A DNA stretch of 64,000 bases from Escherichia coli (GTDB lineage Bacteria; Pseudomonadota; Gammaproteobacteria; Enterobacterales; Enterobacteriaceae). A program made the position numbers and the translations under genes. Positions 3,947 through 58,406 of this stretch are shown here, one piece after another. The notes under the pieces were generated by a model. It was not told the DNA's origin. It did not search any database and saw nothing but the letters and a program-made list of their open reading frames with translations. How positions within the stretch are numbered: position 1 is the stretch's first letter; each line of letters begins with the position of its first letter. The stretch lies in the NCBI RefSeq assembly GCF_024700885.2, contig NZ_CP117016.1. The stretch is one strand, 5' to 3'.

Positions 3947-4015
3947 ATGCCTGATTACGGTATTGCTATTTTTTGCAGGCCAGATAAGGCGTTCACGCCG
4001 CATCTGGCATTCAGA
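3947..4015. repeat. REP (repetitive extragenic palindromic) element
   Basis: Imperfect palindrome caggccagataaggcgttcacgccgcatctggc with the typical REP consensus; intergenic between convergent rplY and yejK. Confidence 0.7.
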
Positions 4016-4027
4016 ACACAAAACCGA

Positions 4028-5035
4028 TTAATTGCCGCCAGACGTCCGGCGCTGCAATTGATCGCGCAAATTCGGCGGCGTGCCTTTAATGGTCAGGGTA
4101 TCGGTTGCTGGATCCCAGAAGATGCGTTCACCTAACAGCATCGAATCAAAGTTAATAGTCAAGCCACCGCCGCTACCGGCAAACTTCGTCAACTGACGCA
4201 GTGTGCTACGGTCTGCCGGGAAGCTCTCTTCCAGTTCGTAGCCTTTTTCAGCCGCAAACTCCGTGAAGCTCACTTCGCTGACGCCTGCCAGCTCTTTCGA
4301 CAGCGATTCCAGTTCAATCTCTTCACCTGCCTGTAGCTGCTCATTACAGTAGCTATAAACCTGCTGGCGCACGTTCTGTCGCTCTGCTTTATCCAGTTGT
4401 GCTTCGGCAGTGAAATCATCGACCGCTTGCAACAGCCCACGGTTTTGCGCTTTCGCGTTTAACCCTTCGCTGGCACCGAGGAAATCCATAAAGAAATCCG
4501 CCACTTTGCGCCCTACTCGCCCTTTCAGGAAAGTGAGATAGCGGGTCGACTCTGGATTGGTTTCCCACTCGGTTAAATCGATACGCGCAACAATATCCGC
4601 ATGATTGATATCAAGATAATGGGTTGGGTTGATGTCGAGATTTTCGTTAACACGCATACTGCTCAGGTTACTCAGAACTGCCACCAGCAGATACTCCACC
4701 GCCAGATAGCGATAGTGGCAAAACAGCACGAATCCACCGTCAGCAAAAGGATATTTCGCTAATTCGTCACGCAGGCGACCGGTTGCCGCGCGGCTAAATG
4801 CCAGAAAGTCCTCTTCGCCCTGACGCTGTAAGCGCAGCGTCTGCGCCAGTTCACTCTCTTCGCTAAACAAGCCGTAAGCTTTATTTTTGGCGCTATAGAC
4901 CCGATGCAGTTCTGCCACCATCTCAACGACGGTTTCTGTCGGTTCCAGCAATGAATCGCGCAACACCAGCTCAAGGTTCTGCTCATCACGCTTGATAAGC
5001 TGGTGCAGAGCAATCTGGTTGATATCCAGACTCAT
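4028..5035 (-). CDS. yejK: Nucleoid-associated protein YejK/NdpA (335 aa)
   Basis: Full-length ORF with recognised YejK sequence ([19 protein letters not shown]...); synteny. Confidence 0.9.
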
Positions 5036-5216
5036 GATAAACTCTCCTTTAAGACCGGGCGGTATTCAACCACCGCCGGTTAAGCGACGCAATAAAAGAT
5101 GGCGGTCATTTTACAGAAGGCAGCGTAACGAGAATGATTTAACGCATAAAAAAGCAGAAAAAAAACCGTTGCTACGGTAATATGTTGCCCTTTCATCAAC
5201 TAACTGATTTCGATTT

Positions 5217-5444
5217 ATGCCACAAATTTCCCGCTACAGTGATGAACAGGTTGAACAATTGCTCGCAGAGCTACTCAACGTACTGGAAAAACATAAGGCT
5301 CCGACCGACCTTTCCCTGATGGTGTTAGGCAACATGGTCACTAACCTTATCAACACCAGCATTGCCCCGGCCCAACGCCAGGCAATTGCCAACTCTTTTG
5401 CCCGCGCCTTACAGTCCTCTATCAACGAAGACAAAGCGCACTAA
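5217..5444 (+). CDS. yejL: UPF0352 family protein YejL (75 aa)
   Basis: Recognised sequence [20 protein letters not shown]...; located upstream of yejM. Confidence 0.88.
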
Positions 5445-5463
5445 GGGAAACAGATAACAGGTT

Positions 5464-56825: not shown

Positions 56826-56950
56826 TTGAGATGCCGGATGCGGCGTGAACGCCTTATCCGGCATACGGCTCGGTTTGTAGGCCTGATATGACGCGCCAGC
56901 GTCGCATCAGGCACAGGATGCGGCGTAAAATGCCTTATCCGGCATTAAAC
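56826..56950. repeat. REP/BIME cluster in the nrdA-nrdB intergenic region
   Basis: gatgccggatgcggcgtgaacgccttatccggcatac ... gcctgatatgacgcgccagcgtcgcatcaggc ... ggatgcggcgtaaaatgccttatccggca. Confidence 0.8.
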
Positions 56951-56968
56951 TCCCAACAGGACACATTC

Positions 56969-58099
56969 ATGGCATATACCACCTTTTCACAGACGAAAAA
57001 TGATCAGCTCAAAGAACCGATGTTCTTTGGTCAGCCGGTCAACGTGGCTCGCTACGATCAGCAAAAATATGACATCTTCGAAAAGCTGATCGAAAAGCAG
57101 CTCTCTTTCTTCTGGCGTCCGGAAGAAGTTGACGTTTCTCGTGACCGTATCGATTACCAGGCACTGCCTGAACACGAAAAACACATCTTTATCAGCAACC
57201 TGAAATATCAGACGTTGCTGGACTCCATTCAGGGTCGCAGCCCGAACGTGGCACTGCTGCCGCTGATCTCGATCCCTGAACTGGAAACCTGGGTCGAAAC
57301 CTGGGCGTTCTCAGAAACCATTCACTCTCGTTCTTATACCCATATCATTCGTAATATCGTTAACGATCCGTCCGTTGTGTTTGATGATATCGTCACCAAC
57401 GAGCAGATCCAGAAACGTGCGGAAGGGATCTCCAGCTATTACGATGAGCTGATCGAAATGACCAGCTACTGGCATCTGCTGGGCGAAGGTACCCACACCG
57501 TTAACGGTAAAACCGTAACCGTTAGCCTGCGCGAGCTGAAGAAAAAACTGTATCTCTGCCTGATGAGCGTTAACGCGCTGGAAGCGATCCGCTTCTACGT
57601 CAGCTTTGCTTGTTCCTTTGCCTTTGCAGAACGCGAACTGATGGAAGGTAACGCCAAAATTATTCGCCTGATTGCCCGCGATGAAGCCCTGCACCTGACC
57701 GGTACTCAGCATATGCTGAATCTGCTGCGCAGCGGCGCGGATGATCCGGAGATGGCGGAAATTGCCGAAGAATGTAAGCAGGAATGCTATGACCTGTTTG
57801 TCCAGGCGGCACAGCAAGAGAAAGACTGGGCGGATTATCTGTTCCGTGACGGTTCGATGATTGGTCTGAATAAAGACATTCTCTGCCAGTACGTTGAATA
57901 CATCACCAATATCCGCATGCAGGCAGTCGGTTTGGATCTGCCGTTCCAGACTCGCTCCAACCCGATCCCGTGGATCAATACCTGGCTGGTGTCTGATAAC
58001 GTGCAGGTTGCTCCGCAGGAAGTGGAAGTCAGTTCTTATCTGGTCGGGCAGATTGACTCGGAAGTGGACACCGACGATTTGAGTAACTTCCAGCTCTGA
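56969..58099 (+). CDS. nrdB: Ribonucleoside-diphosphate reductase 1 beta subunit NrdB (376 aa)
   Basis: Start [17 protein letters not shown] at ATG 56969; the ORF track start at 56888 is an extension into the REP region. Confidence 0.95.
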
Positions 58100-58353
58100 T
58101 GGCTCGCATTACCCTGCGCATCACTGGCACACAACTGCTGTGCCAGGATGAACACCCTTCCCTTCTGGCGGCGCTGGAATCCCACAATGTGGCGGTTGAG
58201 TACCAGTGCCGCGAAGGTTACTGCGGTTCCTGTCGCACGCGCCTTGTTGCAGGCCAGGTGGACTGGATTGCCGAACCGTTAGCCTTTATTCAGCCGGGGG
58301 AAATTTTGCCTTGTTGTTGCCGGGCAAAAGGCGATATTGAAATCGAGTTGTGA
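58099..58353 (+). CDS. yfaE: 2Fe-2S ferredoxin YfaE (84 aa)
   Basis: Cysteine ligands CREGYCGSCR ... CCC; start overlaps nrdB stop. Confidence 0.9.
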   Translation: MARITLRITGTQLLCQDEHPSLLAALESHNVAVEYQCREGYCGSCRTRLVAGQVDWIAEPLAFIQPGEILPCCCRAKGDIEIEL

Positions 58354-58355
58354 TC

Positions 58356-58406
58356 GGGTACTAGCGCCAGATACGACGCTTACGCGTATTATCTGGCCTA
58401 CAACGA
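58356..58406. repeat. REP-like palindrome between yfaE and inaA
   Basis: gccagatacgacgcttacgcgtattatctggcctaca imperfect palindrome. Confidence 0.55.

Follow-up and report, generated by a model that had tools for sequence, protein, structure and literature searches.

Known REP systems and their counterparts in the window

The y and z2 palindromic units (REPs) of Escherichia coli were described by Stern, Higgins, Gilson and Bachellier (for review see Ton-Hoang et al. 2012, PMC3333891); they are imperfect palindromes of 35–38 nt that match a consensus, contain a 2×2 mismatch, occupy extragenic sites at the 3' ends of genes, and alternate in orientation within pairs. The window considered here, a 64,000-nt stretch of the E. 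coli chromosome extending from bcr to glpQ, holds 11 strong copies, six of the y and five of the z2 type, which share these features and almost certainly are canonical E. coli REPs, found singly at two sites, as inverted pairs at three, and as a triple at one, with the make-up of BIME-2-type elements. They match the published REP/BIME biology, which is already known, and differ from the described units in nothing substantial: five of them have a mutated head, while GTAG is kept in 6 of the 11, and one overlaps the rcsC stop codon.

As in BIME-2, the pairs and the triple consist of inverted y and z2 units with short linkers, and the loci grow by y+z2 units, other strains having 4, 5, 12 or 14 REPs at them; in the window, however, the arrays are close to or at their smallest size, and the pair in eco/mqo has decayed. 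The assignment is made by y/z2 content, orientation, and amplification, strict membership depending on the linker motifs S, s, l, and r. A BIME-1 comprises a z1 unit, a long L linker with an IHF site, and a y unit. Neither a match to the z1-type pattern nor a linker longer than 19 bp was found in the window. The profile detects z1 units less readily: between narP and ccmH, where K-12 has a BIME-1 (z1, a 35-bp linker, and y) and the spacer of the window is empty, it did not pick up the z1 half.

The REP325/naRNA4 system (yjdM–yjdN; Qian et al. 2015, PMC4550694; Harris et al. 2026 preprint) is built of the same y/z2 unit, and its tandem yjdM/yjdN context parallels that of nrdA/nrdB, but REP325 has 12 units compared with two or three in the window. 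The REPs of nrdAB are themselves described as a translational down-regulator, PMC12306157 presenting them, after Liang, Rudd and Deutscher (2015), as a reported example of the rule by which a REP acts when placed no more than 15 nt from a stop codon. In the window the first REP begins 8 nt past the nrdA stop codon (nrdA ends at 56823), and the strain has three REPs there versus five in K-12. REP heads also carry the bridge-RNA target of IS621, a member of the IS110 family (Choi 2003; Durrant et al. 2024, PMC11208160), although no IS621 is present within the window.

REP copies of the bcr–glpQ segment

Gene names and CDS ends follow the RefSeq annotation of strain 1190 (NZ_CP023386.1), which is collinear with the window and differs from it in 4 of 64,000 bases. 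The K-12 RefSeq record consulted lists no annotated REP features in the corresponding region, and the REPs were therefore called de novo, with an nhmmer profile built from the window's own copies and run over the whole window. The 11 copies (Table 1) have E-values from 3e-12 to 4e-8, and the rest of the window gave no match below E = 0.3 apart from the opposite-strand shadows of these copies. The REP tail pattern CTTATCMGGCCTAC (14 bases, up to two mismatches) was found eight times against 0.53 expected from shuffles; all eight matches fall within five of the six REP-bearing spacers, and only the more degenerate eco/mqo copies were missed. The classical 37-base REP pattern, absent from 100 shuffles, is matched exactly by the ubiG/yfaL z2 copy. 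Against the y, z1, and z2 consensus strings given in PMC11208160, the identity per copy is 29–34 of 35 positions for the six y copies and 30–35 of 37 for the five z2 copies. The window contains no BoxC/TMECO motif. As BLAST queries, the nrdAB spacer with its three REPs was found in each genome at a median of 21 and a maximum of 44 places, a word of 28 bases being required, and the ubiG/yfaL spacer at a median of 11; matches at so many places speak against repeats confined to these loci.

A sequence-only reading of this DNA had placed REPs at rplY/yejK, eco/mqo, rcsB/rcsC, ubiG/yfaL, nrdA/nrdB, and yfaE/inaA. The profile scan of the window located them at all six junctions and nowhere else; the gene names given agree with the annotation of strain 1190, the division into five convergent junctions and one operon-internal junction is correct, and the remark that REPs are expected in E. 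coli is borne out by the match of the copies to the published y/z2 consensus. The term "clusters" is loose, two of the sites having a single REP, three a pair (decayed in eco/mqo), and one a triple.

Table 1. REP copies and an associated palindrome in the window (scores from the nhmmer profile)
Feature	Position	Strand	Score	Identity	Remarks
y REP, single, rplY/yejK	3975..4009	-	40.3 bits, E=1e-11	31/35 to y	head GCAG in place of GTAG
y REP, degenerate, eco/mqo	24127..24161 (nhmmer 24130-24161)	-	29.6 bits	29/35 to y	stem GTCGGAT...ATCCGAC; head CCAG in place of GTAG
z2 REP, eco/mqo	24181..24216	+	31.6 bits	33/37 to z2	3' foot damaged, CTTATCTGCATAC
Perfect palindrome, 14-bp arms, mqo side of eco/mqo	24217..24247	.			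GCCACATCCGGCAT-ACC-ATGCCGGATGTGGC
z2 REP, rcsB/rcsC	35982..36018	-	42.0 bits	33/37 to z2	GTAG intact
y REP, rcsB/rcsC	36030..36064	+	38.6 bits	33/35 to y	
z2 REP, ubiG/yfaL	49981..50017	+	36.5 bits	34/37 to z2	
y REP, ubiG/yfaL	50028..50062	-	39.6 bits	34/35 to y	21 nt past yfaL stop
y REP, nrdA/nrdB	56832..56866	+	37.3 bits	33/35 to y	head ATAC for CTAC
z2 REP, nrdA/nrdB, middle copy	56877..56913	-	36.4 bits	35/37 to z2	
y REP, degenerate, nrdA/nrdB, last copy	56914..56945	+	29.1 bits	30/35 to y	no GTAG/CTAC head
z2 REP, single, yfaE/inaA	58364..58401	+	33.3 bits	30/37 to z2	

The fold z-scores of all six spacers range from −3.5 to −7.5. The REPs fold into a 7-bp outer stem, a 2×2 internal loop, and a 4–5-bp inner stem, with the 2×2 internal mismatch conserved in every fold; 92.6% of the cells of the REP alignment pair, compared with 26–41% in slid controls, and compensatory changes affecting both sides are found at three base pairs. 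The change in the stem of the eco/mqo y REP (C–G to U–A, alignment columns 3/33) is compensatory. GTAG is intact in both copies of rcsB/rcsC, both copies of ubiG/yfaL, the middle copy of nrdAB, and the copy of yfaE/inaA, while the remaining five have GCAG, CCAG, GTAT, or no such sequence. The order of units is z2(−) y(+) in rcsB/rcsC, z2(+) y(−) in ubiG/yfaL, where the two are head-to-head with a 10-bp linker, y(+) z2(−) y(+) in nrdAB, and y(−) z2(+) in eco/mqo; the main linkers measure 10, 10, 11, and 19 bp, whereas between the last two copies of nrdAB there is no linker at all.

Intergenic DNA makes up 8.3% of the window, and all 11 REPs are located in spacers that follow the 3' end of at least one gene. 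Five of the nine convergent junctions, one of the 36 tandem ones (nrdA/nrdB), and none of the nine divergent ones are occupied (Fisher p = 2e-4), which agrees with a published survey reporting REPs at 207 of 704 convergent pairs. The rplY/yejK REP is situated 18 nt past the yejK stop codon, before the bidirectional rplY terminator at 3909–3935. The motif TGCCTGATTA at 3949–3958, close to the start coordinate given in the sequence-only reading, might be what a deleted z-type REP left behind; only eight bases match, and it is not listed as an element. The rcsB/rcsC z2 REP starts 6 nt past the rcsB stop codon, and the CTAC head of its y partner (36061–36064) overlaps the rcsC CDS, which ends at 36061, by 4 nt; on the minus strand, the TAG within GTAG is itself the stop codon of rcsC. 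The last nrdA/nrdB y REP is also found, as the same terminal copy, in K-12 and O157. The yfaE/inaA spacer, 53 bp long, is filled by its REP, located 10 nt past the yfaE and 5 nt past the inaA stop codon.

The palindrome on the mqo side of eco/mqo lies 5 nt past the mqo stop codon, folds into a perfect hairpin on both strands, and gives weak half-REP nhmmer matches on both (7.1 and 6.3 bits), each of its arms resembling the first half of a y REP; a near-identical hairpin, differing in one loop base, is carried by strain MS8320. The palindrome may be a REP remnant. A match to Rfam Rev24 at 37653–38107 (118.7 bits, the gathering score being 246 bits) lies inside the rcsC CDS and was rejected as coding homology only.

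The statement that REPs account for most of the ORF noise in intergenic regions was not sustained. Among unannotated ORFs with at least 30 nt of intergenic DNA, those touching a REP number 13 of 72 (≥30 aa), 7 of 36 (≥60 aa), and 2 of 8 (≥90 aa), that is, about a fifth of this noise, and of the N-terminal ORF extensions 1 of 12 touches a REP. The extension of nrdB had been rightly ascribed to a REP: the ORF spans 56888–58099 and the annotated gene 56969–58099, the false start, an ATG at 56888, lying inside the middle nrdA/nrdB REP and adding 27 codons.

Variation among strains and IS621 targets

The six spacers were compared among strains in systematic samples of 29–59 ranked rows per site, drawn from 5,426 complete genomes. 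They vary at four sites and keep a constant length at the two single-REP sites: the rplY/yejK spacer has an identical length in 28 of 29 sampled genomes and is 1 bp shorter in one, and that of yfaE/inaA is constant in 29 of 29. Three of the four variable spacers change in two-REP steps. Eco/mqo contains from 2 to 14 REPs across strains, in steps of about 113 bp, the long K-12-like arrays appearing as partial matches whose repeated pieces stay unjoined, while the change at rcsB/rcsC is +114 bp and that at nrdAB +88 bp. K-12 has 12, 4, and 5 REPs at the loci with 2, 2, and 3 in the window. The nrdA/nrdB spacer, which extends from the nrdA stop codon to the ribosome-binding region of nrdB, occurs among E. 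coli in at least four forms, with three REPs (the window strain), with five (K-12, O157), with a y/z1 array of four, and without REPs but with a BoxC/TMECO triplex motif; about a third of the sampled genomes have no REP in it. Variation by REP-pair units has already been reported for BIMEs (PMC3333891).

The REPs had also been regarded as potential rearrangement sites. This is supported only for local events in other strains, namely changes of copy number, replacement of a whole spacer, and a single IS621 insertion; no large rearrangement was found at these sites. The large differences between the window and K-12 are an IS5 in yejO, a 9.4-kb yfaP–yfaA block, and the inaA–glpQ genes, none of them at a REP site of the window. 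Since the profile scan found no REP remnants at atoB/gyrA or downstream of inaA, a large rearrangement mediated by REPs is unsupported.

The natural target of IS621 is ATCAGGCCTAC, with position 4 tolerated (PMC11208160). It is present exactly in two REPs, at 50007–50017 (ubiG/yfaL) and 56877–56887 (nrdAB), and ATCTGGCCTAC, differing from it only at position 4, in three, including the rcsB/rcsC z2 REP and that of yfaE/inaA (58391–58401). In strain MIN6, IS621 is inserted exactly in the yfaE/inaA REP, at GGCCT/CTAC, with the CT core duplicated; REP heads are live IS621 targets.

Proposed origin and function, and the alternatives

By analogy with the described systems, the REPs of the window would be non-autonomous and owe their spread and reshaping to RayT (TnpA-REP), the REP-associated tyrosine transposase. 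Of the 5426 complete E. coli genomes, only 3575 have a detectable gene for it, and the gene is absent from the window itself. Published work indicates that RayT requires both the GTAG head and the mismatch in the stem, and the five copies without GTAG are probably immobile relics. Transcribed in a 3' UTR, the hairpins would block 3'-to-5' exonucleases and partly attenuate read-through, which would serve both transcripts of a convergent pair, and in nrdAB would favour nrdA over nrdB. A dual role of REP hairpins as terminators and stabilisers has been published, the reported effects being context-dependent and sometimes absent. A hairpin starting within 15 nt of a stop codon may also stall the terminating ribosome; a spacing of at most 15 nt is found for rcsB, rcsC, nrdA, yfaE, and inaA, and the half-REP palindrome that follows mqo has it too. 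As for the DNA itself, gyrase is known to prefer y/z2 BIMEs, and REP heads are the natural target of IS621; the copies of the window may act likewise. For the window strain, every one of these functional steps is proposed by analogy.

The location at 3' ends and the strong folds might equally be expected of ordinary intrinsic (Rho-independent) terminators, which REPs would then resemble merely as GC-rich hairpins, and the rplY/yejK spacer does hold a true hairpin followed by a T tract. That terminator is, however, separate from the REP; none of the 11 hairpins is followed by a T tract, a scan of the remaining five spacers found nothing resembling a terminator, the copies have in common 29–35 of 35–37 consensus positions, including the loop and the foot, far beyond what a common function would require, and those of nrdA/nrdB lie inside an operon that needs read-through. 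This explanation is hardly credible. Nothing but the short length of the palindromes would favour chance or low-complexity features of GC-rich spacers, an idea disposed of by the counts in shuffled sequences and by the E-values of the profile matches.

Paired REPs have further been seen as genes for naRNA4-like nucleoid-associated RNAs, which together with HU would join distant REP loci and compact the chromosome, a model proposed in PMC4550694. The rcsB/rcsC pair (35985–36061) indeed scores 73.8 bits against Rfam RF02564, above the gathering score of 59.5 bits. The copies of eco/mqo, nrdAB, and ubiG/yfaL reach 38–55 bits, all scores outside rcsB/rcsC span 35.7–55.1 bits, and the eco/mqo pair, with 55.1, stays below the gathering score. 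As the family itself is one y/z2 BIME unit of REP325, the match restates REP membership. According to a preprint of 2026 by the same laboratory line, deletion or over-expression of REP325 leaves the nucleoid volume unchanged, no REP–REP contacts appear in Hi-C, and REP325 acts locally on yjdMN. Such a role is very improbable here. A main role at the DNA level, in which the REPs would be strong gyrase sites absorbing positive supercoils between convergent genes, is unlikely to a lesser degree: BIME-2 elements are enriched in gyrase cleavage sites, with a preference for y REPs, and blocking transcription raises the signal instead of lowering it (PMC6379681); moreover, all but one of the six sites are convergent junctions. 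Nevertheless, only a subset of BIME-2 is cleaved, the named examples being multi-copy arrays (PMC6379681), while the sites of the window hold one copy (two sites) or two to three; a gyrase role is compatible with one at the RNA level.

Taken as canonical REPs, the 11 hairpins account for the strong palindromes, the match to naRNA4 of Rfam, one false ORF extension, and several antisense spacer ORFs, and nothing new needs therefore to be invoked at these coordinates; for a genome scan their value is that of a filter. What they add is a small and already anticipated point, that BIME copy number is commonly polymorphic and single REPs are stable. It is conceivable, although the odds are judged to be somewhat against it, that the REP content of these spacers, instead of being neutral junk, is a regulatory polymorphism of natural origin, most clearly in the essential nrdAB operon. 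Since REPs lying no more than 15 nt from the stop codon of nrdA reportedly reduce translation of NrdA and protect its transcript or attenuate it, the nrdAB alleles could set different NrdA:NrdB ratios by lineage.

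Identity and placement of the REPs

The sequence-only reading placed REPs at six junctions, and eleven copies were found in exactly those spacers, which confirms the observation. The classical 37-base REP pattern has one exact match and none in 100 shuffles. When at most two mismatches are allowed, the 14-base REP tail matches eight times against 0.53 expected, always within five of the six spacers, and eco/mqo, whose copies are degenerate, alone escaped it. A profile built from the aligned copies read out of the six spacers and run over the whole window gave 11 matches (E from 3e-12 to 4e-8) and, opposite-strand shadows aside, no further match there below E = 0.3. 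A separate pattern search of the window for z1-type REPs gave no match. Family identity is also evident from a comparison with the y, z1, and z2 consensus sequences of Durrant et al. 2024 (PMC11208160), by which six copies are y-type (identity 29-34 of 35), five z2-type (30-35 of 37), and none z1.

The hairpin is conserved: once the eleven copies are aligned, 92.6% of the cells in the expected hairpin pair, compared with 26-41% in slid controls, with compensatory changes at three pairs. All REP spacers fold well above shuffles (z -3.5 to -7.5), and paired copies are also able to pair with each other. The rcsB/rcsC pair scores 73.8 bits against Rfam naRNA4, the RNA family of REP325, a match that restates its y/z2 make-up; the part in nucleoid compaction once proposed for naRNA4 is now contested by work from that same laboratory line.

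Intergenic DNA makes up 8.3% of the window, and REPs 7.3% of that DNA. They lie 3' of genes, occupying 5/9 convergent, 1/36 tandem, and 0/9 divergent junctions (Fisher p = 2e-4); a recent preprint gives 207/704 convergent pairs genome-wide. The REP stem starts at most 15 nt past the stop codon of rcsB, rcsC, nrdA, yfaE, and inaA, as does a half-REP palindrome past that of mqo, and the REP overlaps rcsC by 4 nt, in K-12 alike. A hairpin with a T-tract terminator is present at rplY/yejK, apart from the REP, and none was found in the other five REP spacers.

Published work suggests how such elements may act. At the RNA level the hairpin would be a local exonuclease block and a partial Rho-dependent attenuator, in convergent pairs probably in both directions, and within 15 nt of a stop codon it may stall ribosomes, nrdAB being a published case of stop-proximal REP stalling (PMC12306157). 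At the DNA level gyrase would cleave preferentially at the y units of BIME-2 (PMC6379681). REPs are probably spread and reshaped on single-stranded DNA by RayT, the REP-associated tyrosine transposase, which requires the GTAG head (PMC3333891), intact in 6/11 copies and mutated in 5/11. rayT is detectable by megablast in only 3575/5426 complete E. coli genomes; nearly all of the complete genomes have REPs at these loci.

Positions in the window, REP arrangement, and forms among sampled chromosomes
Feature	Position	In the window	Sampled chromosomes
rplY/yejK		single REP	length unchanged in 28/29; 1 bp shorter in one
eco/mqo	24217-24247 (palindrome)	decayed y + z2 pair, then perfect palindrome, arms resembling REP half-sites	window length 38/59; remainder mostly expanded by ~113-bp steps, up to 14 REPs
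rcsB/rcsC	36061-36064 (GTAG head)	z2 + y, tail-to-tail, 11 bp apart; final three bases of GTAG = rcsC stop TAG	2-REP form as in the window 8/39; 4-REP form (+114 bp) 31
ubiG/yfaL		z2 + y, head-to-head, 10 bp apart	two 2-REP forms, 12 bp apart in length, 34/39; single divergent REP, 60-bp spacer, 5
nrdA/nrdB	56824-56968	y, z2, y	3 REPs 13/59; 5 REPs 25; y/z1 array of four 3; REP-free 18
yfaE/inaA	58354-58406	single REP	length constant, 29/29
narP/ccmH	11036-11069	34 bp, terminator hairpin alone	empty 22/29; K-12 z1, 35-bp linker, y insert in 7
37-base REP match	49981-50017
nrdB ORF starts	56888; 56969	mechanical ATG within z2 REP, 27 codons upstream; annotated start
ORF opposite nrdA	54448-56325 (-)	625 aa
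ORF opposite ompC	30731-31753 (+)	340 aa
atoB/gyrA	46328-46600	no REP
inaA-glpQ interval	59138-62894	MFS transporter (-), full-length LysR regulator (+), 368-codon ORF
yejO	7477-10068	intact, 863 aa
L25 ribosomal-protein leader	3558-3583	upstream of rplY
tRNA-Pro (proL)	7299-7372
MicF	32231-32324

Variation and rearrangement among strains

That strains differ in BIME number is known from earlier work (PMC3333891), and the comparison by junction suggested in the sequence-only reading shows it here too. In the homologous region the profile detects 26 REPs at seven spacers in K-12 versus 11 at six in the window. The junctions with their ~400-bp flanks were searched in 5,426 complete genomes, spacer lengths being taken from systematic samples of ranked matches (29-59 chromosome rows per site). 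Four spacers, rcsB/rcsC, ubiG/yfaL, eco/mqo, and nrdA/nrdB, are polymorphic in REP number among the sampled chromosomes, and two are near-constant in length. The K-12 narP/ccmH insert of 176 bp (locus L001, 13149-13358), with an AT-rich linker and a near-duplicate hairpin flanking it, has a layout similar to BIME-1.

The suggestion that REPs are potential rearrangement sites held only locally. At five of the six sites the two flanks remain joined in 98% of genomes or more, and the apparent separations at eco/mqo are long arrays whose pieces the search leaves unjoined. The single exception examined, strain MIN6, carries the bridge-RNA element IS621 (locus L011, 3402-4733) inside its yfaE/inaA REP. 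The insertion point, GGCCT/CTAC with the CT core duplicated, agrees with the IS621 target ATCAGGCCTAC, tolerant of change at position 4 (Durrant et al. 2024, PMC11208160), of which the window holds two exact copies and three position-4 variants. The large differences from K-12 lie away from REPs.

Gene content of the region

The window extends from bcr to glpQ on the E. coli chromosome (K-12 equivalent ~2.279-2.35 Mb) and is collinear with the canine isolate 1190 (NZ_CP023386.1), differing at 4/64,000 positions; by the RefSeq annotation of that record all gene names first assigned are correct. K-12 has a 9.4-kb yfaP-yfaA operon between atoB and gyrA that the window lacks, and because the acidic C-terminal tail of GyrA differs too (878 aa, versus 875 aa ending EVDVDDEPEEE in K-12), the boundary of this difference lies inside the last gyrA codons. 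The 368-codon ORF between inaA and glpQ, labelled a frameshifted hypothetical in strain 1190, has no match in Pfam or NCBIfam; K-12 retains there just the yfaH pseudogene, matching the final 67 residues of the LysR protein. yejO is IS5-interrupted in K-12. Rfam matches above gathering scores are the L25 leader, proL, and MicF.

ORF noise and the nrdA-nrdB spacer alleles

An N-terminal extension of the nrdB ORF had been attributed to a REP, and its mechanical start indeed lies within one. The wider claim, that REPs account for most intergenic ORF noise, fails: of the unannotated ORFs that reach 60 aa and include at least 30 nt of intergenic DNA, only 7/36 touch a REP (13/72 at 30 aa, 2/8 at 90 aa), as does 1/12 N-terminal extensions. 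The largest noise comes from two antisense shadow ORFs, opposite nrdA and ompC, with no connection with REPs.

In other strains (loci L003, L004, and L005) the entire nrdA-nrdB spacer is exchanged; the replaced stretch begins two bases past the stop codon of nrdA and ends ~13 bases short of the ATG of nrdB. In the REP-free form, of 88 bp, lies a triplex motif of BoxC/TMECO type A, CCCCTCTCCCC-TTGC-GGGAGAGGG-TTA-GGGTGAGGGG. The original REP observation is correct and descriptive, concerning a textbook repeat family already known, and the only by-product of mild interest is this four-allele series, which could conceivably tune an essential operon, allele tuning of nrdAB being already anticipated in the field.
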